DNA from: a virus
Taxonomy: Duplodnaviria; Heunggongvirae; Uroviricota; Caudoviricetes
IMG/VR virus record: IMGVR_UViG_3300035498_001143
Direction: 5' to 3' (one strand)
DNA: 64,000 nt
In this document: in pieces, positions 4,278-49,715 of the stretch
How positions within the stretch are numbered: position 1 is the stretch's first letter
How the letters are laid out: each line of letters starts with the position of its first letter
Program-made: the position numbers and the translations under genes
Notes under the pieces: model-generated
Database searches by the model: none
Told to the model about the DNA's origin: nothing
What the model saw: the letters and a program-made list of their open reading frames with translations, nothing else

Positions 4278-5387
4278 ATGAAGAATAGAATTTTAAAAAG
4301 AATATCTGCTATCAATTTAACAGATGAGGAAGAAAATTTTTTAATCCTTCTTGAAGATAATTTAGGTTTTGATGAAAAAACCGTTAAGGATATAAAGAAA
4401 GAATTATTGAGAGGTACAAAAACAATTCACGATATTGTAAAGGAATATCGTGAATTAGAAGATTTTGATTTAGATGAAGAAGAAAAGGACGATAAAGATA
4501 GATTTAATGCTTCTACAACAAAGATACTTACTAACTTTATTAAGGAAGATAAGTTTTCCAAGGAAGAAATAAAAGAAATTGGTGATGCAGTAAATAGTAG
4601 TAATGCTGACTTCTTTAAGGCTTTTGCTAAAGCTGACGAGAGAGGTGAATTTACTGCTAATATGTATATCGAAGCATTAAAATTAAATGATGAATATAGT
4701 TCAGATAAGATGGATAAGTTCTTGGTATATATGAGTAATATTAAGAGAAAACCAAATATGAGTACTATTGAATACTTTAAGAATATATTTTTACCTGCTG
4801 ATATTGAAAAGCTTTCTGATGATAGGTTTAAATATACTTTTGTTGCAAGTGGTACATTTAATGCTGTTGCTTCTTTAGCAAAAGTTCCTAAGTCATCAGA
4901 ATTAGTAAATGATATTATTACTGTAATGGTTGATTTTGACGTACATCACGCAATTGCTAATATGGTTTATTGTTATTTGAAGAATAAGAATAATATGGAC
5001 TTAATGGAAGAATTTTGCGAGGAAGTTCCAAGAGCAGACAAGGGTACAGAAGATGATGCTGCTTGGAAAGTAATTAGAAGAATCCTTGCTGAAAATGATA
5101 GAAGTTTCGCAGAGTTTGTTTTGGATGATTTAGGTATTGTAAAGAAATTCTTAAATGATGATGAAGCAATGAAAGATATGGAAGATTTGTATGAGGAATA
5201 CAAGGGCAATGCAACAAAGTTTAAGATTTTTAAAGATTGTCTTGCAGATGGTATAATTGATGAAGAAGAAATTTCAAAAATAATGTTTCAGAATGATACT
5301 GATAGAGAACATTTTGAGGATGAAGAAGAATATATCAATACATATAGTAAGAGAAATAAAATTCGTATGAGAATGGGTAAAAGATAA
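4278..5387 (+). CDS. hypothetical acidic protein
   Basis: ATG with an aaggaga RBS; no recognisable motifs; D/E-rich. Confidence 0.45.
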   Translation: MKNRILKRISAINLTDEEENFLILLEDNLGFDEKTVKDIKKELLRGTKTIHDIVKEYRELEDFDLDEEEKDDKDRFNASTTKILTNFIKEDKFSKEEIKEIGDAVNSSNADFFKAFAKADERGEFTANMYIEALKLNDEYSSDKMDKFLVYMSNIKRKPNMSTIEYFKNIFLPADIEKLSDDRFKYTFVASGTFNAVASLAKVPKSSELVNDIITVMVDFDVHHAIANMVYCYLKNKNNMDLMEEFCEEVPRADKGTEDDAAWKVIRRILAENDRSFAEFVLDDLGIVKKFLNDDEAMKDMEDLYEEYKGNATKFKIFKDCLADGIIDEEEISKIMFQNDTDREHFEDEEEYINTYSKRNKIRMRMGKR

Positions 5388-5403
5388 TTATATAATATGT
5401 ATA

Positions 5404-5437
5404 AGGAGTGGCTTAAAAAAGCTACTCCTTTTTTTTA
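5404..5437 (+). terminator. rho-independent terminator
   Basis: Hairpin aggagtggc...gctactcct plus T8. Confidence 0.55.
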
Positions 5438-5464
5438 TATTTTAGAAAAAGGTAGGTGATATAA

Positions 5465-5731
5465 ATGAACGAAAGTTTAACAGTAGAAATTTCTTCATAT
5501 ACAAAGGAAGATAAGTTAATTACAAGCGAAAAGTTTGAAATACCACTTAAATTATTTAGTGACCAAATGTTTATTCCTATTTTCTATAACGGACTTAAAA
5601 AAACATATTATGATAATTCTGTTATTGAAGATTATGAGGAGAAACATAATGGTTTTTGTGAAGTTACAATTAAAGCATTTAATAAAAAGTTAAATGCTAA
5701 AGTAGTAACAGATATAAAGAGAAATTTTTAA
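5465..5731 (+). CDS. hypothetical protein
   Basis: ORF with an aaaggtaggtga RBS. Confidence 0.35.
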   Translation: MNESLTVEISSYTKEDKLITSEKFEIPLKLFSDQMFIPIFYNGLKKTYYDNSVIEDYEEKHNGFCEVTIKAFNKKLNAKVVTDIKRNF

Positions 5732-8149: not shown

Positions 8150-9944
8150 AGTTGAACAAGTTTTTTACGTGCTGAAAAATCTTAAAGTCAATCAAACTAC
8201 AACATAATTAGAAATAATAAGTGTGAATGTTACGAAAGTAGAAAAAATTGATTGAATGGAATATGGTGAAATAAAAGCTAATATATAAACATTTATATAT
8301 TAGTCCTAAGTTCTTTTAATAATAGGTAATCAGCAATTAAATATCTAAATAAAATCAATTATTTTATATGATATGGATTCAACGACTATTCTTGAAAAAG
8401 ACAATGGAAATTTGTCAATAGAAGTAGGACCTAAGTAGGTAGGTGAAATCCCTTTAAATCGAAATGGAAAGATAGTATTTTTACTATGATGATATAGTCT
8501 GTTCTTATATGAGAGTATAAGATTTATAATAAAACATTATAAAAACTAAATATATATTTAACTTTTTCACCTTTTTTCTATATAAGAAATATAGGAGGTG
8601 AAAAATAATGATATATATGGGATTTAAAACCAAAATATATCCCACAAAAGAACAAATTGAATATTTTAATAAATGTTTTGGAATAGATAGATTTGTTTTT
8701 AATTGGTATCTTTACAATGATAAAAAGTATTATGCTCAAGGAAATCGACAATCTTATTATGATTTAAGAGAAAAATTAATTCAATTAAAGCATACTCCAA
8801 AATTTAATTGGTTAATGACAGCAAATGATAGAATTTTGAATTGTTCGATGAAAAATGCTAAAATGGGACTTGACAAGTTCTTTAAAAAGCTTAATAGATA
8901 TCCAAATTATAAAACAAAGAAATCGAAAAATAAAAGTTTCTCTTGTGAAAGATGTTTAATAGATTCAAATTCTACTAAATTGAAAAGATTTAAGCATTTG
9001 TTTAATGGATTTCATTTTTATATTGCAGGAGAACAAGAAGAAGGAAAACGTAGTGCTAATGGATATTTTATAAAAACAGCGGAAGATATTACTTTTTTAA
9101 AAAATAAAACTATTAAAAAAATTACAATATCTTACGATGGAATAGATTATTATGTAAGTTTTTCTTATGAAAATAGCATTATTGACTATAATGGTCATAT
9201 TGTTGATGTTGTAGGTATAGATTTAGGGCTGAAAAAATATTCAGTTCAATCTGATAACCGAATAACAGTATTTCCCAAACAAAGGGTTTTTAAGTTAGAG
9301 AAAAGAATTAAAAGATTAAGAAGTATATTAAATAAAAAGGAAAAGGGAAGTAATAACTATAATAAAGTGAAAACCAAACTTAGAAAAAGTTATAGAAAGA
9401 TTACGAATATAGTTTTGGACTTTTTACATAAATATACTACTTATATATGTAAAACCTATAAAACAATTAAAATAGAAGATTTGACGATTAAAAAAATGCT
9501 AAAAAATCACAATCTTGCAAAAGCAATTCATCGTAGTTGTTGGAGAAAATTTAGAAATATGCTTCAATATAAATCGTTGTTATATAATAATAATTTGATT
9601 ATAGTTGATAGCTATTTTCCATCAAGTAAAACGTGTTATTATTGTAGAAATAAAAAGCAAGATTTAAAATTATCGGATAGAATTTACCATTGTAATGTAT
9701 GTGGTTATGAAAACGATAGAGATTTAAACGCAGCATATAATTTAAGAGAGTGGATATAATAAATAACTTATACTAAGAAAAGTTATTATTACCTTGGTTA
9801 AAGGAATTAAGAATTTGTTTTAATTATAAAGAGTAATTATTAAATTAATTATTACTTATATATTAGTTAAATGAATTTAGTTAATTTTTTATTTTGTTTT
9901 TATATGAAAATTATTAAATAACGAATAATAATTAACAAGACAGG
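8150..9944 (+). mobile_element. IStron: group I ribozyme module (5') fused to an IS605/IS1341-family TnpB element (3'); boundaries +/- 3 nt
   Basis: Group I core elements Q (AATCAGCAA, 8328-8336), R (TTCAACGACTAT) and S (GATATAGTCTG) lie in the 450-nt ORF-less 5' part. The tnpB ORF follows, and subterminal RE-like hairpins (agtaattatt...aattattact) sit near the 3' end, which ends in G. The host reading frame resumes in phase at 9945. Confidence 0.65.
8608..9759 (+). CDS. tnpB: TnpB (IS605 OrfB / IS1341-type RuvC-like RNA-guided nuclease)
   Basis: 383 aa. N-terminal MxxGFKxKxYPTKEQ typical of OrfB. C-terminal C4 zinc finger CYYC...CNVCG and a terminal RuvC-III-like DRDLNAAYNL. Confidence 0.85.
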   Translation: MIYMGFKTKIYPTKEQIEYFNKCFGIDRFVFNWYLYNDKKYYAQGNRQSYYDLREKLIQLKHTPKFNWLMTANDRILNCSMKNAKMGLDKFFKKLNRYPNYKTKKSKNKSFSCERCLIDSNSTKLKRFKHLFNGFHFYIAGEQEEGKRSANGYFIKTAEDITFLKNKTIKKITISYDGIDYYVSFSYENSIIDYNGHIVDVVGIDLGLKKYSVQSDNRITVFPKQRVFKLEKRIKRLRSILNKKEKGSNNYNKVKTKLRKSYRKITNIVLDFLHKYTTYICKTYKTIKIEDLTIKKMLKNHNLAKAIHRSCWRKFRNMLQYKSLLYNNNLIIVDSYFPSSKTCYYCRNKKQDLKLSDRIYHCNVCGYENDRDLNAAYNLREWI

Positions 9945-25116: not shown

Positions 25117-25341
25117 ATGAGAGATAAAAATAGATTGTATGACTTTTATGATGAATTAAGAGATATACATATAAAATATTTTCCTGATTTAAGATTTACT
25201 CAACTTGTTGAAGTTGTTAATAATTATATAACTAAATATCATTATGTAGATTCTTTTTATGTGGAAGAAAAAGCTTTCATTGGATATTTAAAAGAATATA
25301 CTAAACAAATTGTTGGTGATAAATACGAAGAAAGAGGGTAG
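25117..25341 (+). CDS. hypothetical protein
   Basis: ATG after RBS aaggaat. Confidence 0.35.
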   Translation: MRDKNRLYDFYDELRDIHIKYFPDLRFTQLVEVVNNYITKYHYVDSFYVEEKAFIGYLKEYTKQIVGDKYEERG

Positions 25342-25365
25342 AAAAAACTACCCTCTATTTTTTAT
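25332..25365 (+). terminator. rho-independent terminator
   Basis: agagggtag...ctaccctct plus T7. Confidence 0.6.
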
Positions 25366-25439
25366 TCTCCTAAAAGTTTATTTATTTCTTCCAATCTTGC
25401 AAGTAACTTGTTCTTTTCTTCGATAAGTTTATCTCTATC

Positions 25440-25599
25440 ATTTACTTTCCAATATATTAGTATTAATACGAACTATGAGAAATTTTATGTTGAGGGTACA
25501 GCGACATTTACTTTCCAATATATTAGTATTAATACCCTTTAATGATATATTGATTTGATTATCATTTGTATTTACTTTCCAATATATTAGTATTAATAC
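25440..25599 (-). CRISPR. mini CRISPR-like array A: 3 identical 30-nt repeats, spacers of 36 and 34 nt; transcribed leftward from the leader at 25600-26034
   Basis: Repeat ATTTACTTTCCAATATATTAGTATTAATAC at 25440-25469, 25506-25535 and 25570-25599. The minus-strand form GTATTAATACTAATATATTGGAAAGTAAAT ends in ...GTAAAT like clostridial type I-B repeats. The spacers are unique. Confidence 0.55.
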
Positions 25600-26034
25600 A
25601 CGTTCAGTATACAGCAGTATTTTTTATCGATATTTCAAATACCAATATTGTCGAACCTATTGAAAAGTTGATTTCAAACATTATTCTTTATTCATCATTT
25701 ACTTTATTCTCACAAAAACATAAGTAAACAAAGTGTTTTCAAACTTTCTGTCTATCTCTTAGTAATTTTACATTACTATACATCGACAGAATTGAAAAAC
25801 TAAAAAAATAAAAAGTATTCATACCATATATTGAATTTGGTGAGTGGTGGGCTACTACTCGTCATTTTTGGTGTAGTCTTAAAATTCTACAGCGGTGTTG
25901 AACTGTATGTGATATGAGTTACCCTCACCCTACGGACGGCAAATCGCCCGAAGTCACCAATTAAGGTGCTTATAAAAAAATGATTTTAAAAACTTACAAT
26001 ATTATAATATCACAACTACTTTTATTTGTCAAGT
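25600..26034 (-). promoter_or_regulatory. conserved ~430-bp CRISPR leader with distal consensus promoter (TTGACA 26032-26027, TATTAT 26009-26004, minus strand) and a proximal TTGAAA/TATACT-like promoter next to the first repeat
   Basis: About 90 percent identical to 42549-42990, which follows array B. Contains a 9-bp inverted repeat (aattctgtc/gacagaatt) and a GC-rich segment. Confidence 0.5.
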
Positions 26035-26100
26035 GTTTTTTAGTAATTTTATGGTTTAATTTGTTTATTATTTAAATAAAAAATATAAGGAGTAATTGAA

Positions 26101-26880
26101 ATGAAAAGATTGGTTAGAAAGTCTGCTAATGTTAATATACACGAAGCTATTGGTAATGCAATAAAGAAAATTGGTGATATTGATAGTGCAAAAACTATTG
26201 TTAATAATTTTATCGAAGATATCTTAACCGCCTATGATGAAGAATTAATTAACGATGATTATGCTTTATATTTATTAGGTGAATTTGAGAAGAATCCTAA
26301 TGTTGATATTTTTTCTATTATTGATAGTGAGGAAGAAGAATTAGTTGCTGCTTCTGTAAAAACAGCGGATGATGAAAAAGATAAAACTGAATTAGAGAAA
26401 TTTAGAGACCGTTTAGATAAGAAAGACAAAAAGGAAAAAGAAGATTATGACAATTTGCCTTTCAAGGGTAAGGTTAAACATCATTTTGATAAGGCTAAAG
26501 CATTATATAAAGAGTTCTTTGCTGAAAAATTAGATGATATGGTTGTAATAAAAGTTCCCAGCATTACTCATAATCGTGATGAAAATGGTAAGTTAATTCC
26601 TCTTACGGATGCAGAAAGACAGAAGTATATAAATTTAACAATAGAACTGTTAAATGCTGCTTTCTTTGGTAGTTCAAGTAGAGAAGAATCAGGTACTTGG
26701 CTTGATGACAAGACAAAGGAGAATGTAGTAGAAGTATCAGAAACTATTTATTCTTATTGTTCAAAGAAAAACTTAAAAGCTCACGAACACGAAATTGTTG
26801 AGTTATGTAAGGAAATGAAAGAGAATTTAAGTCAGGATAGTATTTGTTTAACAATGCACGGTAGAACACAATTTATTTAA
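26101..26880 (+). CDS. hypothetical protein
   Basis: ORF with RBS aaggag. Confidence 0.4.
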   Translation: MKRLVRKSANVNIHEAIGNAIKKIGDIDSAKTIVNNFIEDILTAYDEELINDDYALYLLGEFEKNPNVDIFSIIDSEEEELVAASVKTADDEKDKTELEKFRDRLDKKDKKEKEDYDNLPFKGKVKHHFDKAKALYKEFFAEKLDDMVVIKVPSITHNRDENGKLIPLTDAERQKYINLTIELLNAAFFGSSSREESGTWLDDKTKENVVEVSETIYSYCSKKNLKAHEHEIVELCKEMKENLSQDSICLTMHGRTQFI

Positions 26881-27681: not shown

Positions 27682-28155
27682 ATGAGTAAATATAGTGGAA
27701 AATGTGATTTCTATGATATAATTGAAATTCACGGTATAGATAAAATATTAAATAGTAGGGTTTTTGTTGGCGATGAAGAAGTATTTTTAAAATCAGAAAA
27801 AGATTGTATTAAATATTATCCTTATGTTGTTTCTACTTCTCATACAGATAAGGACGGTGGTACATTTCATTTAACAGATAGGTCTTGGGTAGATATTGAA
27901 GAAGAAGGAATGTTGAAAATTTATTTAAATATATTTATTAGATACTTTAATAAATGCAAAAGAAATAATATAGAATATAAGATAGAAGATGCTGTTAAGC
28001 AAACATTAAGTAATGATGAAAAAGCCGTTTTAGAATTAGCTAATAGAGTAAAAGATAATGGTAAAACCGCTACTTATGAAGGCGTACATTTAAAATTGTA
28101 TGATTATTATAGGAATCTTTTAAATGATAAATTAAAGGAGGTTGATAATCTTTGA
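27682..28155 (+). CDS. hypothetical protein
   Basis: ORF with RBS. Confidence 0.4.
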   Translation: MSKYSGKCDFYDIIEIHGIDKILNSRVFVGDEEVFLKSEKDCIKYYPYVVSTSHTDKDGGTFHLTDRSWVDIEEEGMLKIYLNIFIRYFNKCKRNNIEYKIEDAVKQTLSNDEKAVLELANRVKDNGKTATYEGVHLKLYDYYRNLLNDKLKEVDNL

Positions 28156-29003
28156 GTGATTATATTAAATCTCCAATTAATTATATTGGTGGTAAATTTA
28201 AATTATTAAAACATATAATTCCTGAGTTTCCAAATGATATAAATACATTTGTAGATTTATTCGGTGGAGCTTTTAATGTTGGTATTAATGTAAATGCTAA
28301 TAAAGTTATATATAATGATATAATCAATTATTTATCTGAATTATTTATATATTGGAAAAGTACAGAGCTTAAAGAAATAAATAATTATATTGATGAAAAA
28401 ATAAACGAGTATGATTTATCTTCAACTAATTTAGATGGATTTCTTAATTTTAGAAAAAATTATAATACAGTAAAAGATATTAGAGATTTATTTATATTAC
28501 TATGTTATTCTTTTAACTATCAAATAAGATTTAATAATAAACAAGAGTATAATAGTAGCTTTGGTAAAAAGAAAAGTACAATGAATCCTAACATACGAAG
28601 AAATTTAAATGTTTTTGTTGATAGATTACATAGTGGTAATTATGAGTTTGTAAATAAAAACTTTGTAAATTTTGATTTTTCTATATTAAATAAAAATGAT
28701 TTTGTTTATTGTGATTGTCCTTATACAATTAGTACAGGCGTTTATCAAGATGGTAAAAGAGGCTTTAATGGTTGGTCTAAAGAAGATGATACTAAATTGT
28801 TTAATATTCTTGATGAATTAAATAATAGAAATATTAGATTTGCTTTAAGCAATGTTTTTGAGAATAAGGACTTGAAGAATGAAGAGCTGATTGAATGGGC
28901 TAATAAGTATAACGTAATACATATAAACACAACATATAATGGAAGTAATTATCAAAGAAAATCAACAAGTAAAACCGATGAGGTTTTAATAAAAAATTAC
29001 TAA
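28152..29003 (+). CDS. Dam-like (D12-class) N6-adenine DNA methyltransferase
   Basis: N-terminal YIGGKFKLL...FVDLFGGAF (SAM-binding) and DCPY catalytic motif (a DPPY variant). Confidence 0.7.
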   Translation: MSDYIKSPINYIGGKFKLLKHIIPEFPNDINTFVDLFGGAFNVGINVNANKVIYNDIINYLSELFIYWKSTELKEINNYIDEKINEYDLSSTNLDGFLNFRKNYNTVKDIRDLFILLCYSFNYQIRFNNKQEYNSSFGKKKSTMNPNIRRNLNVFVDRLHSGNYEFVNKNFVNFDFSILNKNDFVYCDCPYTISTGVYQDGKRGFNGWSKEDDTKLFNILDELNNRNIRFALSNVFENKDLKNEELIEWANKYNVIHINTTYNGSNYQRKSTSKTDEVLIKNY

Positions 29004-32117: not shown

Positions 32118-33215
32118 ATGATTAATTTAATAAATGGTGATTGTCTTGAAAAAATGAAAGATATACAAGATAAGTCAATAGATTTAATTCTGTGCGATTT
32201 GCCTTATGGTACTCAAAAAAGTAATGGTTGTAAATGGGATATAATTATTCCTTTTGACAAACTATGGGAGCAATATAATAGAATCATAAAAGATGATGGT
32301 GCTATTGTTTTATTCGGAAAAGAACCTTTTAGTTCTTTATTAAGAGCGAGTAATTTAAATATGTATAAATATGATTGGATATGGAGTAAAGATACCAAGA
32401 GTAATTTTATGCAGTGTAATTATCAACCATTAAATAATTTGGAATGTATATCTGTGTTTTCAAAGGCTTACGCAAGAGAAATAAAAGATAAAGTAAAAAT
32501 GAAATACAATCCTCAATTTTCAGAGGGAGATAGTTATAAACTCCCAAAAGAAAGTAGTACGACAGAAATATTTAGTTCTAATCATAAAAACGGTAAATAC
32601 ATACATAAAGATAGAGATACATCAAAAAGATACCCATATAATACATTATTCTTTAATTCTGTAAAAGGAAAAGAAAAAATACATCCTACACAAAAACCAA
32701 TTGATTTATTAGAGTATTTAATAAAAACATATACAGATGAAAATGATTTAGTATTAGATAACTGTATGGGAAGTGGAAGTACAGGTATTGCTTGTATTAA
32801 TACTAATAGAAATTTTATAGGAATAGAAAAAGATATTGATTTTTATATAAAGGCGAGTAATAGAATAGAAGACCATAAAAATAGCATTTTATTAACTCAA
32901 GCAGTAAATGTAACTATTGATTGTATTAACGAAGATTATGAAGAATATGATGAAAATTACAATGAAGAAAATATTCAAGATTTTGAAATAAATTGTTTTG
33001 AATTGCCTAAACGTGATATTGATGATATTGCAGGAAATGAAATACAATTAGGAAATAATTATTTTTTTCGAGAACCTGAACAATTAGATAAAGTAGAATT
33101 TATTTCGTTTAAAAAACCTGATGATGAATATTTAGAACCACTTAATTCTGAAAGATTTGAAAATATTTTTGTAAAAGAAAGGTTTTATGAAGAAAAACCT
33201 TTAGAAAGGAAATAA
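32118..33215 (+). CDS. N4/N6 DNA methyltransferase, beta class, with acidic C-terminal extension
   Basis: N-terminal DLILCDLPYGT (catalytic) and C-terminal HPTQKP...DNCMGSGSTGIAC (SAM binding), the circularly permuted beta order. Confidence 0.75.
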   Translation: MINLINGDCLEKMKDIQDKSIDLILCDLPYGTQKSNGCKWDIIIPFDKLWEQYNRIIKDDGAIVLFGKEPFSSLLRASNLNMYKYDWIWSKDTKSNFMQCNYQPLNNLECISVFSKAYAREIKDKVKMKYNPQFSEGDSYKLPKESSTTEIFSSNHKNGKYIHKDRDTSKRYPYNTLFFNSVKGKEKIHPTQKPIDLLEYLIKTYTDENDLVLDNCMGSGSTGIACINTNRNFIGIEKDIDFYIKASNRIEDHKNSILLTQAVNVTIDCINEDYEEYDENYNEENIQDFEINCFELPKRDIDDIAGNEIQLGNNYFFREPEQLDKVEFISFKKPDDEYLEPLNSERFENIFVKERFYEEKPLERK

Positions 33216-40931: not shown

Positions 40932-40967
40932 AAGGCTCACAAATTAAGATTTTGTGAGTCTTTTTTT
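40932..40967 (+). terminator. rho-independent terminator
   Basis: aaaggctcacaaa...tttgtgagtcttt plus T7. Confidence 0.6.
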
Positions 40968-41004
40968 ATATATAAAATATAAAAAGAAAGGACTGTATAT
41001 AAAA

Positions 41005-41505
41005 ATGATTATAAATAGAGTATGGTCAATGCCTAACAGTAACACTTTTTCAATAAAGCCTATCAAAGAAATTATAAATAAATACGCTTTTGGTAAAATT
41101 ATAGACCCTTTTGCTAATGATAGTAAAATTGCAACTATTACTAATGATTTAGATATATCTCACGATACTGATTATCATTTAGATGCTACTGATTTTTTAA
41201 AGATGTTTGAAGACAATTCTATTGATACTGTTTTATATGACCCACCTTATTCTCCACGTCAAGTTTCTGAATGTTATAAGAAGTTAGGACAAACAGTAAA
41301 TATGCAAACAACACAAGCTTCTTACTGGTCACTTCAAAAAGAGCAAATAGGAAGAATTGTAAAACAAAATGGTATAGTGATAACTTGTTGTTGGAACTCA
41401 GGCGGTATTGGTAAAAAATATGGTTTTGAAATAGAAGAAATATTGTTAGTACCACATGGCGGTTGGCATAATGATACTATTGTAACAGTAGAAAGAAAAA
41501 AGTAG
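41005..41505 (+). CDS. small DPPY-motif DNA (adenine) methyltransferase
   Basis: LYDPPYSPRQ catalytic motif in a 166-aa protein; the ORF-track start is moved to the ATG with RBS after the terminator. Confidence 0.55.
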   Translation: MIINRVWSMPNSNTFSIKPIKEIINKYAFGKIIDPFANDSKIATITNDLDISHDTDYHLDATDFLKMFEDNSIDTVLYDPPYSPRQVSECYKKLGQTVNMQTTQASYWSLQKEQIGRIVKQNGIVITCCWNSGGIGKKYGFEIEEILLVPHGGWHNDTIVTVERKK

Positions 41506-41514
41506 GTGTAATAT

Positions 41515-42099
41515 GTGGCTAAGATAGAAAATGATAAGTATTATACACCTGATGATTTAGCAAAATACTGTGTAGAAAAAGCAAATGAAATAATAGGTGT
41601 TGATAATATAATTAGTTATATAGAACCATCAGCAGGAGCAGGGGCGTTTATTAAATATTTTAATAAAGATTATTTAGCAATAGATATTCTTCCTGAACAC
41701 GAAAGAGTCATTGAACAAGATTTTTTGACTTTAAATCTTTCTTACAAGAAAGGTAGAATGATAATAGGCAATCCACCGTATGGTAGAAATATGTCTTTAG
41801 CTCAAAAATTCTATAAGAAATCAATAGAGCTTGCAGATTATATAGCTTTTATATTGCCTATTTCACAATTAAATAATACTAATTCTTTATATGAATTTGA
41901 TTTAATATATAGTGAGGACTTGGGAATAAGAACATATTCAAATATTGATTTACATTGTTGCTTTAATATTTACAAAAGACCTGAAAACGGGTTAAATAAA
42001 AAGGAAAGTATTAAATTAAAAGATATAACTATTTATAGACAAGATAAAAAAGGTTATGATAATTTAGATTTTGATATAAGAATGTGCTACTGGGGGTAA
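41515..42099 (+). CDS. N6-adenine DNA methyltransferase, gamma-like (NPPY)
   Basis: YYTP...EPSAGAGAF (SAM) then IIGNPPYGR (catalytic). Confidence 0.7.
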   Translation: MAKIENDKYYTPDDLAKYCVEKANEIIGVDNIISYIEPSAGAGAFIKYFNKDYLAIDILPEHERVIEQDFLTLNLSYKKGRMIIGNPPYGRNMSLAQKFYKKSIELADYIAFILPISQLNNTNSLYEFDLIYSEDLGIRTYSNIDLHCCFNIYKRPENGLNKKESIKLKDITIYRQDKKGYDNLDFDIRMCYWG

Positions 42100-42400: not shown

Positions 42401-42548
42401 ATTTACTTTCCAATATTTCAATATTAATACCTTAAAAACAACTTAAAAAAACAGATTACCTCGAATTTACTTTTCAATATAGTAGCATTAATACTTTGGT
42501 GATTACACAAACAGTACATTTACTTTCCAACATATTAGTATCAATACC
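42401..42548 (-). CRISPR. mini CRISPR-like array B: 3 diverged copies of the same 30-31-nt repeat, spacers of 34 and 23 nt
   Basis: Repeats at 42401-42431, 42466-42495 and 42519-42548 match array A at 24-27 of 30 positions. It is followed by the same conserved leader (42549-42990). Confidence 0.4.
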
Positions 42549-42978
42549 CGTTTAGTATGCAGTAGTACATTTTATTAGTATTTCAAATACTAAATCTGTC
42601 GAACTCATTGAAAAAGTTAATTTCGAATATTATTTTTTATCCATTATTTACTTTATTCTCACAAGAACATAAGTAAATAAAGTGTTTTCAAAATTCTGTC
42701 TATCTCTTAGCAATTTTACACTACTATACATCGACAGAATTTAAAAACTAAAAAAATAAAAAGTATTTATACTATATATTGAATTTGGTGAGTGGTTGGC
42801 TTCTTCCGTCAAAGCGGTGCAAGTCTTAAAATTCTACAGCAGTGTTGAACTGTATGTGATATGAATTACCCTCACCCTACGGACGGCAAATCGCCCGAAG
42901 TCACCAATTAAAGTGCTTATAAAAATAGTTCTTAAAAACTTACAATATTATAATAACATATTATTTTCTGTTTGTCAA
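42549..42978 (-). promoter_or_regulatory. second copy of the conserved CRISPR leader with distal minus-strand promoter (TTGACA 42978-42973, TATTAT 42955-42950)
   Basis: About 90 percent identity to 25600-26034, including the inverted repeat and the GC-rich segment. Confidence 0.5.
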
Positions 42979-43024
42979 GTATTTTTTATTAGAAAAATAA
43001 ATTTTAAGAGATGAGTGTGATTTA

Positions 43025-43879
43025 ATGAATAATTTAATTCCACCTTGTTCTTATCAAGGCGGCAAACAAAGACTTGCAAAACAAATTGTAGATATTATAT
43101 ATAAAGAAAATAATATTGATGAAAATACAAAATTTTTTGATATTTGTTGTGGTAGCGGAGCTGTTAGTTTAGAGTTAATAAATAATAACTTTAATTCTAA
43201 TAACATTACAATGATTGATATAAATATTTTTGGACTTTTCTATGAATATGTTTCTAAAAATAAATTTGATTTAAATATTTTTAAAGAAGAAATAGATAAA
43301 TTACCTGATAAAGAATACATACAACTTTATTTAAAACAATTAAGTGATTTACCTATTGATGAAGAAAAATTAGTATATCAATATTTATTGTTGCAGGCAG
43401 GTAGTTTTGGAAGTAAACAAATTTATATAAAAGATAATAAATGGAAGAATAACACGTTTAGAAATTATTGGCAACCTACTAAGAGTAGTAATAGAAAAAG
43501 TCCTGTCAATCCCATGATGCCGATGCCTGATACGTTATTTGAAAGAGTAGAAAATATTGTAAATAAATTAAGTGGTAAGATTGTTGCATACAATGATGAT
43601 ATTTTTAATATATTAAATATTTTTTCCAATTTAGATAATAATGTTATTATTTACATTGACCCACCGTACTCAAACACGACAAAATATAAAGATAGTTTTG
43701 ATGTTTATGAATTGATTGATAAGTTAAAAAACATAAATGATTTTACTATTTATATATCAGAAGGCGTTGAATTGAACAATGCTAAAAACACATATTTACT
43801 TTCAAGAGGTAGAACTAAAGGTAATATTAGTGGTAATGTAACTAAAAAGCCTGTTGAAGAATGGTTAAATAAATTCTGA
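43025..43879 (+). CDS. Dam-like (D12-class) N6-adenine DNA methyltransferase
   Basis: YQGGKQRLAK...CCGSGAV and IYIDPPY. Confidence 0.7.
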   Translation: MNNLIPPCSYQGGKQRLAKQIVDIIYKENNIDENTKFFDICCGSGAVSLELINNNFNSNNITMIDINIFGLFYEYVSKNKFDLNIFKEEIDKLPDKEYIQLYLKQLSDLPIDEEKLVYQYLLLQAGSFGSKQIYIKDNKWKNNTFRNYWQPTKSSNRKSPVNPMMPMPDTLFERVENIVNKLSGKIVAYNDDIFNILNIFSNLDNNVIIYIDPPYSNTTKYKDSFDVYELIDKLKNINDFTIYISEGVELNNAKNTYLLSRGRTKGNISGNVTKKPVEEWLNKF

Positions 43880-43906: not shown

Positions 43907-44239
43907 ATGAAATACAAACCAACAATTAAAGAATACTTAACTTGGATAAAAGAAGATATAAAAAGATTATATTATTTAATACGTTATTTTACAAAGGCAT
44001 TATTTAATGTAGATAAAAATATTTTATTAAGTAAAGATTTTAAAGTGGATAGTTATATTATTACTTTTCATTCTGACGATTATAGCGGAGCTTGTTATGA
44101 TGAAAGAAGATTTGATAATTTTAAAGACGCTTATGAACTTTACGAATTAAGTAAAAATCAAAAATGTAGAGAAGATTTTGTAAGATTGCATATTTCGATT
44201 GAATATATTGGAAATATAGAAATAGCAAGATATAAATAA
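43907..44239 (+). CDS. hypothetical protein
   Basis: ORF. Confidence 0.35.
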   Translation: MKYKPTIKEYLTWIKEDIKRLYYLIRYFTKALFNVDKNILLSKDFKVDSYIITFHSDDYSGACYDERRFDNFKDAYELYELSKNQKCREDFVRLHISIEYIGNIEIARYK

Positions 44240-45907: not shown

Positions 45908-45932
45908 GTGAATAACTTTCTAAGGGAAAAAA

Positions 45933-46693
45933 TGATGAATGAGTATGAATTGTATAATGATGATTGTTTAGAACAAATGAAAAATATTGATGATAAATCT
46001 ATTGATTTGATATTAACTGATTTGCCATACGGTACTACTAATTGTAAGTGGGATTCAATTATACCATTAGATTTATTATGGGAACAATATAATAGAATTA
46101 TTAAAGATAATGGAGCGATTCTTTTGTTTGCACAAACACCATTTGATAAGATATTGGGTTGTTCTAATTTAAAAATGCTGAGATATGAATGGATATGGGA
46201 AAAGACACAAGCAACAGGACATTTCAATGCTAAGAAAATGCCTATGAAAGCCCACGAAAACATATTAGTATTTTATAAAAAATTGCCTACATACAATCCT
46301 CAAAAAATCCAAGGGTGTAAGCCTGCACACGGAGCTGTAAGAAAAGCAGAAGTTGGTAACAAAACACAAATATATGGAAAAGTAAAAGAAGATTCTGTTT
46401 ATGAAGGTGGTAATACAGATAGATACCCTCGTTCTGTAATAATATTTGCTTCCGATAAACAAACTTGTTGTTTACACCCTACACAAAAGCCTGTTGCTTT
46501 ATGTGAATATTTAATTAAAACATATTCTAATGAAAATGATATAGTCTTGGATAGCTGTATGGGGAGTGGAACTACAGGAATAGCTTGTTTAAATACTAAT
46601 AGAAAATTCATAGGAATTGAAAAAGAAAAACAATATTTTGATATAGCTAAAAAAAGAATTGATGATTTTTTAAAGGAGAAAAACATTGAGTAA
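45933..46693 (+). CDS. N4/N6 DNA methyltransferase, beta class (paralog 1)
   Basis: DLILTDLPYGTT then HPTQKPVALCEYLI...DSCMGSGTTGIAC. Confidence 0.75.
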
Positions 46694-47438
46694 TTATGAA
46701 ATTTACAATGATGATTGTTTAGAAAAAATGAAAGATATTTCTGATGAAAGTATAGATATGATTCTTTGTGATTTGCCTTATGGAACAACAGCTTGTAAAT
46801 GGGATATAATTATCCCTTTCAATAAGTTATGGGAACAGTATGAAAGAATAATAACGAATACAGGTGTAATTTGTTTATTCGGACAAGAACCATTTTCAAG
46901 TATGTGTAGAATGAGTAATTTAAATTTATATAGATATGATTATGTATGGCAAAAACAAAAACCAAGTAATTTTCAATTGATGAATTATCAATGTGGTAGA
47001 GTTCACGAAAATATAATGATTTTTAGTAAAGCAAAGGCTTGTTATACTAAAAATGGTGCTAAAATAAATTATTTTCCAATAATGGAAAAAAGAGAAAAAG
47101 TAAGAAAAGCTAATGCTAAAATTTATAATAATGGTAAAGCAGACTTATTACATAATTACAAAACAGAAGATAATTTCAAAACCTATGAAGAAAAACACCC
47201 TATTTCTATTTTAAAATTTAACGCAGTAGAGCATAGAGTTCATCCAACTCAAAAGCCTATTGATTTATTAGAATATCTAATTAAAACATTTACTAAAGAG
47301 AATATGACTGTATTAGATAATTGTATGGGTAGTGGTAGTACGGGTGTTGCTTGTTTAAATATAAATAGGAATTTCATAGGGATAGAGAAAGAGAAGAAAT
47401 ATTTTGATATCGCAAAGGACAGATTAAAAGATGTTTGA
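46686..47438 (+). CDS. N4/N6 DNA methyltransferase, beta class (paralog 2)
   Basis: DMILCDLPYGTT then HPTQKPIDLLEYLI...DNCMGSGSTGVAC. Confidence 0.75.
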   Translation: MSNYEIYNDDCLEKMKDISDESIDMILCDLPYGTTACKWDIIIPFNKLWEQYERIITNTGVICLFGQEPFSSMCRMSNLNLYRYDYVWQKQKPSNFQLMNYQCGRVHENIMIFSKAKACYTKNGAKINYFPIMEKREKVRKANAKIYNNGKADLLHNYKTEDNFKTYEEKHPISILKFNAVEHRVHPTQKPIDLLEYLIKTFTKENMTVLDNCMGSGSTGVACLNINRNFIGIEKEKKYFDIAKDRLKDV

Positions 47439-48183
47439 AAATTGTAATTATGAATTATTTCACGGTGATTGTTTAGAGGTAATGAATAATTTAATAAATA
47501 ATAATATAAAAGTTGATTTAATTTTAACAGATTTACCTTATGAAACAACAAAATGTAAATGGGACATTTTAATTCCTTTTGAAGATTTATGGGATAGATA
47601 TAATAAATTAACAGAAGATAATACACCTATTGTTTTATTTGGGCAAGAACCTTTTAGCTCTTTATTAAGAACAAGTAATTTAGAAAATTACAAGTATGAT
47701 ATTTATTGGGAAAAAGAAAGATTAACTAATATAAATCAAGTTAAAAAAAGAGTAGGAAAAACTGTTGAAACTATTTCTATCTTTTATAAAAAACAATGTA
47801 TTTACAATCCTCAAATGATTAAATATGATGGTAAACCGAGAAGTAATAAAGTAAAGAATGGTAAATTAGGAAAATTAACTGATGATAATGAAAAGAAAGT
47901 ATTTGAATATAAAGATACAGGGTGGAGATATCCTACACAAGTTTGGAAATATCAAAGAGATTGTCTAACTTCTAATTTACATCCTACTCAGAAACCAATT
48001 AAGTTATTAGAAGATTTAATAAAAACTTTCTCTAACGAAAATGCAATCGTATTAGATTCTTGTATGGGTTCAGGTAGCACAGGAGTTGCCTGTTTAAATA
48101 CTAATAGAAAATTTATAGGCATAGAGAAAAATGATGAATATTTTGATATAGCAAAGAAAAGAATTGAGGAGCTTGTTTTATGA
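47431..48183 (+). CDS. N4/N6 DNA methyltransferase, beta class (paralog 3)
   Basis: DLILTDLPYETT then HPTQKPIKLLEDLI...DSCMGSGSTGVAC. Confidence 0.75.
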   Translation: MFENCNYELFHGDCLEVMNNLINNNIKVDLILTDLPYETTKCKWDILIPFEDLWDRYNKLTEDNTPIVLFGQEPFSSLLRTSNLENYKYDIYWEKERLTNINQVKKRVGKTVETISIFYKKQCIYNPQMIKYDGKPRSNKVKNGKLGKLTDDNEKKVFEYKDTGWRYPTQVWKYQRDCLTSNLHPTQKPIKLLEDLIKTFSNENAIVLDSCMGSGSTGVACLNTNRKFIGIEKNDEYFDIAKKRIEELVL

Positions 48184-48929
48184 AATATTTTGGTAGTAAA
48201 AGTAGAATAGCAAAACAAATAATACCCATAATTCAGGAGTACATTGATAAGGGTAATTTTGATACATATATTGAGCCTTTTTGTGGCGGTGCAAATGTAA
48301 TAGATAAAATAGATTGTAAAAATAAAATTGGTTATGATTTAAACAAATATTTAATTGCATTATTAAATTATGTAAAAGACGGTGGAGAATTATATTCATC
48401 AGTAGATAAAGATTTATATGATAAAGCAAGAACAGCTTTTTATAATGATGACAATTCCACATTTACTGATTGGCAAATTGGTAATATTGGTTTTCTTGCT
48501 TCTTATAATGGTCGTTTTTATGATGGTGGTTATGCAAAGCCCGTATATGAAAAAACTAAAAAGGGCACAAGATATCGTGATTATTACAAAGAGGGTAAAG
48601 ATAATTTACTTAATCAAGCCCCTGATTTGAAAGATGTTAAATTTATAAATAAAGATTATAAAGATATAATTCTTCCTGATGATTGTTTAGTATATTGTGA
48701 CCCACCGTATAAGAATACTAAAAAGTTTTACATAGATAAGAATTTTGATTATGATGCTTTTTGGAATAAAATAAGAGAATGGAGTAAAGACCATATTGTT
48801 TTAGTTAGTGAACAAGAAGCACCTAATGATTTTGTTTCTATATGGGAAAAAGATGTAAATAGAAGTATTAATGTTAATAACAAATTTAGTGCAACTGAAA
48901 ATATGTTCATACATAAAAGTTTAACGTGA
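48180..48929 (+). CDS. Dam-like (D12-class) N6-adenine DNA methyltransferase
   Basis: YFGSKSRIAK...YIEPFCGGANV and VYCDPPY. Confidence 0.75.
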   Translation: MKYFGSKSRIAKQIIPIIQEYIDKGNFDTYIEPFCGGANVIDKIDCKNKIGYDLNKYLIALLNYVKDGGELYSSVDKDLYDKARTAFYNDDNSTFTDWQIGNIGFLASYNGRFYDGGYAKPVYEKTKKGTRYRDYYKEGKDNLLNQAPDLKDVKFINKDYKDIILPDDCLVYCDPPYKNTKKFYIDKNFDYDAFWNKIREWSKDHIVLVSEQEAPNDFVSIWEKDVNRSINVNNKFSATENMFIHKSLT

Positions 48930-48938
48930 GGAAAAATA

Positions 48939-49715
48939 ATGGAAATAAATAAAGTTTATAATATGGATTGTTTAGAGTTATTAAAAACAATAGATAAAAA
49001 TTCAATAGATTTAATTCTTATAGACCCACCATATTTAATTAGTCGTGATAGTCATTTTACCCAAGGTGCTAAAAATGATGAAATGAAAAGTAAATATGGA
49101 AAACATAAAATAGATTTTGGTGATTGGGATAAAGGAGAATTAAATCTTCAAAACATATTATCTGAAAGTTATAGAATATTAAAAGACAATGGTACTTTAA
49201 TAATGTTTTATGATTTTTGGAAAATGCAAGAAGTAAAAGAAACTGCTGAACAAATAAAATTTAAGCAACCAAGGTTAGGTATATTTAATAAAACTAATCC
49301 TGTACCTGTAAATGCTAAAATTAATTATTTATCTAATGCGAAAGAATTTTTTGTTACTTTTGTAAAGAAGTCAAAACCAACTTTTAATTCTTATTACGAT
49401 AATGCAGAATATTATTTATCTGAAAATTCAGAAGAAGCAGATACATATTATTTTCCAATAGTACACGGTAAAGAAAGAACTAAACACCCTACTCAAAAAC
49501 CATTATCTTTAATAAAAGATTTAATAAAGAAACATAGTAATGAAGATGATATAGTATTAGATTTCTTTGCAGGTAGTGGTACAACAGGAGTAGCTGCTTC
49601 TGAATTAAATAGAAATTATATATTATGTGAAATAAATAAAGAATATTATGAAATAATCAAAGAAAGATTATCTAAAGAAGAATTATCCAAAAAACCTTCT
49701 AAAGATATAAATTAA
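48939..49715 (+). CDS. N4/N6 DNA methyltransferase, beta class
   Basis: DLILIDPPY then HPTQKPLSLIKDLI...DFFAGSGTTGVAA. Confidence 0.75.
   Translation: MEINKVYNMDCLELLKTIDKNSIDLILIDPPYLISRDSHFTQGAKNDEMKSKYGKHKIDFGDWDKGELNLQNILSESYRILKDNGTLIMFYDFWKMQEVKETAEQIKFKQPRLGIFNKTNPVPVNAKINYLSNAKEFFVTFVKKSKPTFNSYYDNAEYYLSENSEEADTYYFPIVHGKERTKHPTQKPLSLIKDLIKKHSNEDDIVLDFFAGSGTTGVAASELNRNYILCEINKEYYEIIKERLSKEELSKKPSKDIN

Follow-up and report, generated by a model that had tools for sequence, protein, structure and literature searches.

The question raised by this locus is whether three short identical repeats on a phage genome represent a CRISPR array that travels without cas genes, or repeats of some other kind. 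Throughout, the window is the whole 64 000-nt stretch of phage DNA that was analysed. A pattern search detected exactly three matches in the window to the plus-strand repeat ATTTACTTTCCAATATATTAGTATTAATAC (RNA sense, GUAUUAAUACUAAUAUAUUGGAAAGUAAAU), all intact and with no decayed terminal copy, and none in 100 dinucleotide shuffles of the sequence, which indicates that the repeats are non-random. The repeat signature was GTATTAATACTAATATATTGGAAAGTAAAT-like. Both spacers, GTCGCTGTACCCTCAACATAAAATTTCTCATAGTTC and ACAAATGATAATCAAATCAATATATCATTAAAGG, were single copy in the 64-kb window, and the locus, here called array A, has the organization that is characteristic of CRISPR, namely near-identical direct repeats of 23–47 nt alternating with unique spacers of similar length. 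An earlier note on this DNA had described three identical 30-nt repeats with unique spacers of 36 and 34 nt, and the search returned these at the exact positions given in Table 1. Judged from its sequence, array A is a genuine small CRISPR array, without nearby cas genes, on a mobile element.

Table 1. Coordinates of array A, its sibling units and associated features (window numbering unless stated otherwise).
Feature	Position	Strand	Remarks
Bidirectional intrinsic terminator	25333–25356	both	closes upstream plus-strand gene; ∼85 nt beyond last array A repeat
3' remnant of 193-aa gene	25362–25439	−	25 codons + stop, ending ...DRDKLIEEKNKLLARLEEINKLLGE
Array A	25440–25599	−	three identical 30-nt repeats at 25440–25469, 25506–25535 and 25570–25599
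Array A distal spacer	25470–25505	−	36 nt
Array A leader-proximal spacer	25536–25569	−	34 nt
Array A promoter and leader	25600–26033	−	434 nt
Leader hairpin/palindrome	25627–25647	−	28–48 nt upstream of first repeat
Leader hairpin ('degenerate repeat')	25696–25731	−	in 6/7 leaders
G+C-rich leader core	25834–25955	−	122 nt
Array A promoter	−35 TTGACA, 26032–26027; extended −10 TGnTATTAT, ending 26004	−	17-nt spacing
Sibling array B	42401–42547	−	three decayed repeats (2–3 mismatches each); spacers of 34 nt and, truncated, 23 nt
Array B promoter and leader	42548–42979	−	87% identical to leader A
Protospacer	43922–43955	+	30/34 match to an older spacer of the relatives' B-locus array; CCA precedes
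Window's own diverged copy of array B target	45033–45011	−	18/23; nucleoside 2-deoxyribosyltransferase-like gene
Third unit, array C	5128–5650 of 5.8-kb JGI contig (∼64075–64600 in window numbering)	+	just past window end

Some further details of the earlier description held only in part. The 10-bp element of the repeat, GTATTAATAC, is perfectly palindromic in array A but was not kept in the sibling arrays, in which many repeats read GTATTGATAC. The degenerate repeat copy placed at 25694 does have 9 nt (ATTTACTTT) in common with the repeat, but it actually occupies 25696–25713, 2 nt away. The locus, described as intergenic, is not so throughout: the minus-strand sequence that adjoins the array is the 3' remnant of a gene.

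Array A was found to be one copy of a promoter–leader–array cassette, of which there are at least three in this phage and four in its relatives, these being IMG/VR viral contigs of 45–379 kb that are 82–98% identical to the window over long stretches. A 5.8-kb JGI contig, which runs 762 nt past the right end of the window, holds the third promoter–leader–array unit, and its array C consists of two repeats identical to those of array A and one 36-nt spacer. On the plus strand, the ∼430 bp located 3' of arrays A and B were 87% identical, and the outer flanks were unrelated. Leader A was equally 87% identical to the leader of array C, and at this degree of divergence it cannot have been copied very recently from either sibling. 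The fourth leader module of the relatives (3729–4184 of the relative sequence) bears a single degenerate repeat, GTATTATTACTAATATACTGGGAAGCAAAA; here the leader has persisted while the array behind it has decayed away.

The same repeat family was present in the IMG/VR viral contigs in arrays of three, eight and nine repeats, with spacers of 34–37 nt that were all different. At locus B not one spacer was common to the window and the relatives, though the flanks are 86–92% identical, and at locus C the phage of the window has two repeats and one spacer as against nine repeats in the relatives. Spacers have consequently turned over between related genomes at loci B and C with repeats and leader kept, as is expected of CRISPR adaptation. 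The promoter-distal repeats were degenerate in array B and in the arrays of the relatives, which agrees with the orientation set by the promoter.

Targets were sought for 22 spacers in 207 kb of window and related DNA by an ungapped Hamming scan, with shuffled spacers as controls. Two of the 22, both from sibling arrays, matched the other lineage at off-array sites and scored above every shuffled control. The protospacer in the window that corresponds to the older spacer of the relatives sits inside an ORF of 110 aa without a known function; in the relatives themselves this site matches at 28 of 34 positions and has CTA in place of CCA. The 23-nt spacer of array B matches the relatives at 21 of 23 positions, with CCT preceding the site. 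In both cases the carrier's own copy of the protospacer was more diverged than that of the other lineage. CCW occupies 1.55% of positions as background, giving P ∼ 2.4 × 10−4 for its presence at both of two matches, and 5'-CCW is the PAM of the type I-B system of C. difficile (PMC4556805). Both matches contain seed mismatches (at positions 3, 4 and 6 in one), which suggests that the sequenced genomes are escapers or non-targets. These data provide sequence evidence for targeting of sibling by sibling beside a type I-B PAM.

The two spacers of array A gave no target by BLAST against INPHARED, none in IMG/VR with seed and PAM-plus-seed patterns, and nothing above the controls in the 207-kb Hamming scan; the BLAST-type search that the earlier note had proposed for these spacers thus yielded no phage match. 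With neither spacer matches nor a host array nor crRNA-sized products, its author would have regarded the repeats as more likely to be protein-binding iterons, such as those of a locus for replication or partition. Array A on its own, with three copies only, a repeat that ends in a palindrome and neither a spacer match nor a host array, would fit this reading, and the iteron explanation fails nonetheless because of the spacer turnover and the PAM-flanked targets in the sibling arrays. Iterons do not swap the sequence between repeats or expand to nine units with unrelated inserts of 34–37 nt, and inserts in the sibling arrays correspond to PAM-flanked sites within phage genes. Additionally, no initiator family was found among the neighbouring genes, and the repeat palindrome lacks conservation in the siblings. 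An iteron function is considered extremely improbable.

Among CRISPR arrays, the closest known counterparts of array A are clostridial. Comparison of its repeat with that of C. difficile, printed in PMC7064742 as GTTTTAGATTAACTATATGGAATGTAAAT, gave ∼77% identity, and the two repeats agree at 11 of their last 12 nt; this bears out the minus-strand reading as a clostridial type I-B-like repeat. The features of such systems, a 29–30-nt repeat ending ...TGGAAnGTAAAT, spacers of 34–38 nt and 5'-CCW, were all found. The likeness to arrays of Clostridioides phages that had been proposed was also supported, by this repeat identity and by the CCW beside the protospacers of the sibling arrays. C. difficile phage arrays (phiCD630-1/2, phi027, phiCDKH02 and phiCD24-1; type I-B) are phage-borne with no adjacent cas genes, as here, and prophage arrays without cas genes have been described in this species (PMC4556805). 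They have in common with array A a related repeat with the 3' end TGGAAnGTAAAT, a sigma-A promoter with a transcribed leader and a 5'-CCW PAM, and they likewise have spacers against other phages (PMC4556805, PMC7064742).

Several features differ from those of the C. difficile arrays. The leader is ∼400 nt here and 170–200 nt in C. difficile (PMC4556805), and no similarity to C. difficile leaders was detected by nhmmer or with a covariance model. The carrier, of at least 180 kb, is probably a jumbo phage, whereas the C. difficile phages are temperate and of 40–56 kb. Unlike those phages, it has three or four cassettes per genome, and no host with a matching repeat was found. In the leaders of the C. 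difficile phages phiCDKH02, phiCD24-1 and phiCDKH01, a long-range helix, UGCAGUG...CACUGCA, was invariant; it lies ∼170 nt upstream of the repeats, is followed by AAUUUUAA and encloses a poorly conserved interior of ∼95 nt. Clostridial I-B arrays may commonly have a folded domain in their leaders, in a form not homologous to the leader described here.

The earlier note had stated that the window contains no cas gene. In agreement with this, no Cas1–Cas8 Pfam family was among the matches listed for the 91 ORFs of the window, searched whole and as two halves at E ≤ 1e-4, and none of the genes adjoining the arrays was a cas gene, either in the window or among the relatives. The sole Cas-related domain listed was that of an IS605-type TnpB at 8608–9759, 16 kb from array A, with OrfB_IS605, Cas12f1-like TNB and HTH domains and no associated repeat array. 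WYL regulators are frequent companions of CRISPR–Cas loci, and a weak WYL-domain match (E = 2.9e-5) was present among the ORFs of 31816–63379. Candidate cas genes beside the long array of the relatives were rejected: the seven large ORFs at this location had no Pfam or PHROG match except for one that was thymidylate synthase-like, and four of them are paralogous. Downstream of this array (2529–7664 of the relative sequence) there are four tandem paralogues of 407–443 aa, 23–38% mutually identical, and two large ORFs, all on the strand of the array and without a Pfam or PHROG family. The phage may itself encode Cas proteins elsewhere on its >180-kb genome.

Matching arrays in cellular genomes were sought by pattern scans, which need an exact match at fixed positions, such that a host repeat differing there would be missed; on this basis no repeat array was found in 185 579 species-representative genomes (one chance match, inside an Emticicia MAG gene) or in JGI metagenome contigs (two scans, with zero and then two chance matches). 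BLAST of the repeat against PLSDB plasmids and INPHARED phages gave chance matches only. A repeat that matches the arrays of the host is characteristic of viral mini-arrays, and for this one only chance single copies were recovered from genomes, metagenomes, plasmids and phages.

Short phage-borne arrays in several copies and without cas genes could also serve as decoys against host defence or as regulators. In that case their crRNA-like RNAs (Cracr, Racr or CreA-like) would load host Cas proteins and either sponge them or redirect them to the silencing of host cas or toxin genes, instead of killing competing phages. Regulators of this kind have repeat-like units with short or partial 'spacers' that match host cas or toxin promoters, and array-like crRNA-like regulators of phages have been reported (bioRxiv 10.1101/2024.10.29.618823). 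A handle-like hairpin in the leader (AAAGUAAAU) could mimic a crRNA 5' handle, and the spacers of array A are without a phage target. However, the spacers are full length (34–37 nt) and turn over between close relatives, the sibling arrays reach nine repeats, and the targets that were found all lie in phage genes, beside a canonical CCW, rather than in host cas promoters. Full-length spacers, spacer turnover and phage targets make crRNA-like regulators the weaker, though still live, alternative, and we regard this function as unlikely.

The leader was compared across seven variants, those of A, B and C and four from the relatives, with pairwise identities of 76–92%. That a leader of ∼430 bp begins with a promoter, of near-consensus sequence, was confirmed, as 434 bp extend from the last repeat to TTGACA-17-TGnTATTAT; this promoter was the best match of the region in a promoter scan and was kept in 7/7 variants. 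The predicted start of array A transcription lies near 25997, and the transcribed leader is ∼400 nt. A second, array-proximal TTGAAA/TATACT promoter suggested in the earlier note was discarded: its spacing is ∼21 nt, it was not listed by the scan and its hexamers were not kept in the other six leaders.

The leader contains a core with a G+C content of 45.9%, compared with 23.4% for the rest of the leader and 25.8% for the window. RNAalifold predicted in this core an invariant hairpin, UUCGGGCG/CGUCCGAA, with a G-U pair, and a junction closed by GGUGAGGGU/ACCACUCACC with two arms, P2 and P3. Compensatory changes were found in P2 (AAUUC/GAAUU, AGUUC/GAACU and AACUC/GAGUU), in P3 (ACAG/CUGU and AUCG/CGAU) and in the first hairpin, which precedes the core at 25956–25975 (CACC/GGUG, CACUU/AAGUG and CAUCUU/AAGAUG, with insertions in two copies). 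Over the seven related sequences, in which the covariation reflects perhaps three or four evolutionary events, 96.8% of cells were paired and eight pairs had double changes, with none of 500 shuffles as good; pairing fell to ∼40% in slid controls. The alignment fold was −65.7 kcal/mol in the array sense and −46.2 kcal/mol in the antisense. A plus-strand RNA reading of the core was rejected, the antisense fold being 19 kcal/mol worse and worse in all seven sequences, and the better fold in the array sense suggests that the RNA is the 5' part of the array transcript.

Additional hairpins were located between the core and the repeats. The 3' arm of the hairpin that includes the degenerate repeat, AAAGUAAAU, has the same sequence as the 3'-terminal 9 nt of the repeat, and the complementary arm with which it pairs is AUUUACUU. 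The hairpin closest to the array co-varies (UUGAUA/UAUCAA, UUAGUA/UACUAA and UUGGUA/UAUCGA, with G-U pairs), and a long hairpin at ∼25750–25790, in the 3' half of the leader, has co-variation or G-U pairs. No Rfam family matched the window at gathering score, and nothing relevant was found at E ≤ 10 in 25300–26150. A covariance model of the core recovered the known copies only (E ≤ 1e-28) and nothing in the leaders of C. difficile phages. Small proteins or type I toxins encoded in the leader were dismissed, the ORFs of 28 and 53 aa being frame-shifted in other copies. An intrinsic terminator after the core was also dismissed, the hairpin before the U-tract having only four to five weak pairs, and a simple attenuator is not evident.

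These data suggest that the leader is a structured RNA; the structure is well supported and its function is a prediction. Most likely the leader acts in cis, on processivity or antitermination, stability or processing of the transcript, rather than as a separate gene. A motif at 25733–25743 (minus-strand RNA UUUGAAAACAC) was conserved in five of seven copies and bears what we take to be a resemblance to the boxA of Firmicute rRNA operons; no useful literature on the motif was found. An sRNA that controls Rho termination at a CRISPR leader is a precedent for regulation at this point (PMC6700203). The nearest precedent is boxA with Nus factors in CRISPR leaders, a cis-acting RNA signal that protects the long untranslated array transcript against terminating early (PMC7665894). 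That signal is a short linear motif, described in Proteobacteria, Bacteroidetes and Cyanobacteria (PMC7665894), whereas the leader here has a folded domain of ∼120 nt and further hairpins.

The conservation of the leader also bears on the possibility that the arrays are inert relics, host CRISPR DNA captured by recombination, copied around the phage genome and no longer working. Array B has decayed, with mutated repeats and a 23-nt spacer, one module of the relatives retains a single degenerate repeat, and neither cas genes nor a host array were found. Against this, the promoter and the paired positions of the leader are kept in seven copies that have diverged by 8–24%, with compensatory changes, and the spacer sets differ between lineages. 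We consider that relics are very unlikely, somewhat more so than decoys or regulators.

The surroundings of array A indicate how the cassette came to its present position. Synteny with four relatives breaks at 25443 and resumes at 26017, the exact edges of the cassette unit, and array A is not present in the relatives. In its slot they have a complete 193-aa gene on the minus strand, assigned to PHROG 18108 (unknown function), and this gene has a TTGACA promoter of its own in the same place. Since only the last 25 codons of this gene survive in the window and synteny is broken at the cassette edges, the comparison indicates that the cassette overwrote most of the gene in the lineage of the window; the terminator of the replaced gene now stands behind array A. 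At the trailer-side junction, the beginning of the first repeat (25440–25456, ATTTACTTTCCAATATA) resembles the relative sequence that was replaced (GTTTTATCTTCAATAAC, 9363–9379 of the relative). The resemblance may represent recombination microhomology or chance.

Overall, array A is very likely a functional-looking cas-less array of type I-B-like character, within a self-contained jumbo-phage cassette composed of a sigma-70-type promoter, a structured leader of ∼400 nt and the repeats with their spacers. From these features we infer how the array would be transcribed and processed, where its Cas proteins would come from, how interference would proceed and what the leader would do. Minus-strand transcription would begin from the promoter at 26032–26004, continue across the leader and all three repeats, and stop at the terminator at 25333–25356. 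The repeats would be cut by an enzyme of the Cas6 type, provided in trans either from the host or from cas genes elsewhere on the phage genome, to yield two crRNAs with the 8-nt 5' handle AAGUAAAU. The crRNAs would load a Cascade-like complex to attack DNA with a 5'-CCW PAM, the most likely targets being competing phages, close relatives included. The folded leader would most likely act in cis on the array transcript. More speculatively, and with considerable doubt, the leader could be an undescribed cis-acting RNA for phage CRISPR expression (for example a processive antiterminator, or a sensor that ties pre-crRNA synthesis to the stage of infection), the cassette could be mobile and seed arrays by gene replacement, and the repeat could perhaps be served by phage-encoded cas genes and not by a host.

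This inferred biology is already covered, between them, by known arrays of phages and other viruses (PMC4556805, PMC8473940, PMC7162821, PMC6858448). The compact arrays of huge phages (PMC7162821) reside on very large genomes, are short (median six repeats), are usually without Cas1/2/4 and often without effectors; they have been proposed to use host Cas proteins, and some of their spacers target other phages. In contrast to those arrays, the cassettes here are dispersed and repeated promoter–leader–array units with a conserved structured leader. In the mini-arrays of Sulfolobales viruses (PMC6858448), a leader precedes one or two spacers, cas genes are absent and the spacers target close relatives of the carrier; a role in superinfection exclusion has been proposed for these arrays. 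Their setting differs, being archaeal viruses whose type I-A/III hosts have matching repeats, as opposed to a bacterial I-B-like array for which no matching host array was found. BoNT phages carry I-B loci that lack adaptation genes and have phage-against-phage spacers (PMC8473940).

Less ordinary are the dispersal of the cassettes, the gene replacement, the long covarying leader without a known family and a repeat for which no cellular genome was found. Phage-borne arrays without cas genes are instances of viruses borrowing adaptive immunity against one another, and the present locus adds to the known cases a low-G+C jumbo phage with several dispersed arrays. A whole cassette that overwrites a gene suggests a route by which new arrays arise. 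The leader, at twice the clostridial length and with a covarying core of no known family, is possibly a novel RNA; if it controls transcription of the array, it would constitute a new layer of CRISPR regulation and a compact part for the expression of guide arrays.

The DNA around the array gave no blastn match in INPHARED, and the carrier was characterized from its gene content. The window encodes topoisomerase II subunits, an SbcC-like protein, ClpP, RNase H, a 5'–3' exonuclease, HU and AAA ATPases, together with at least 12 DNA methyltransferases and the IS605-type TnpB; no virion genes were found within it. PHROG matches were present, and one protein was 53% identical to gp249 of Bacillus phage G (497 kb). 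On the basis of this gene content and the classification of the relatives, the element is probably a jumbo phage whose host is a low-G+C Firmicute, with Bacillus phage G as the closest characterized relative. Methyltransferase genes (N6/N4, D12 and C5) were dense at 28152–29003, 32118–33215, 40954–42099, 43025–43879 and 45908–49715, the last being a tandem run of paralogues of ∼250 aa, and the set presumably confers broad anti-restriction protection.
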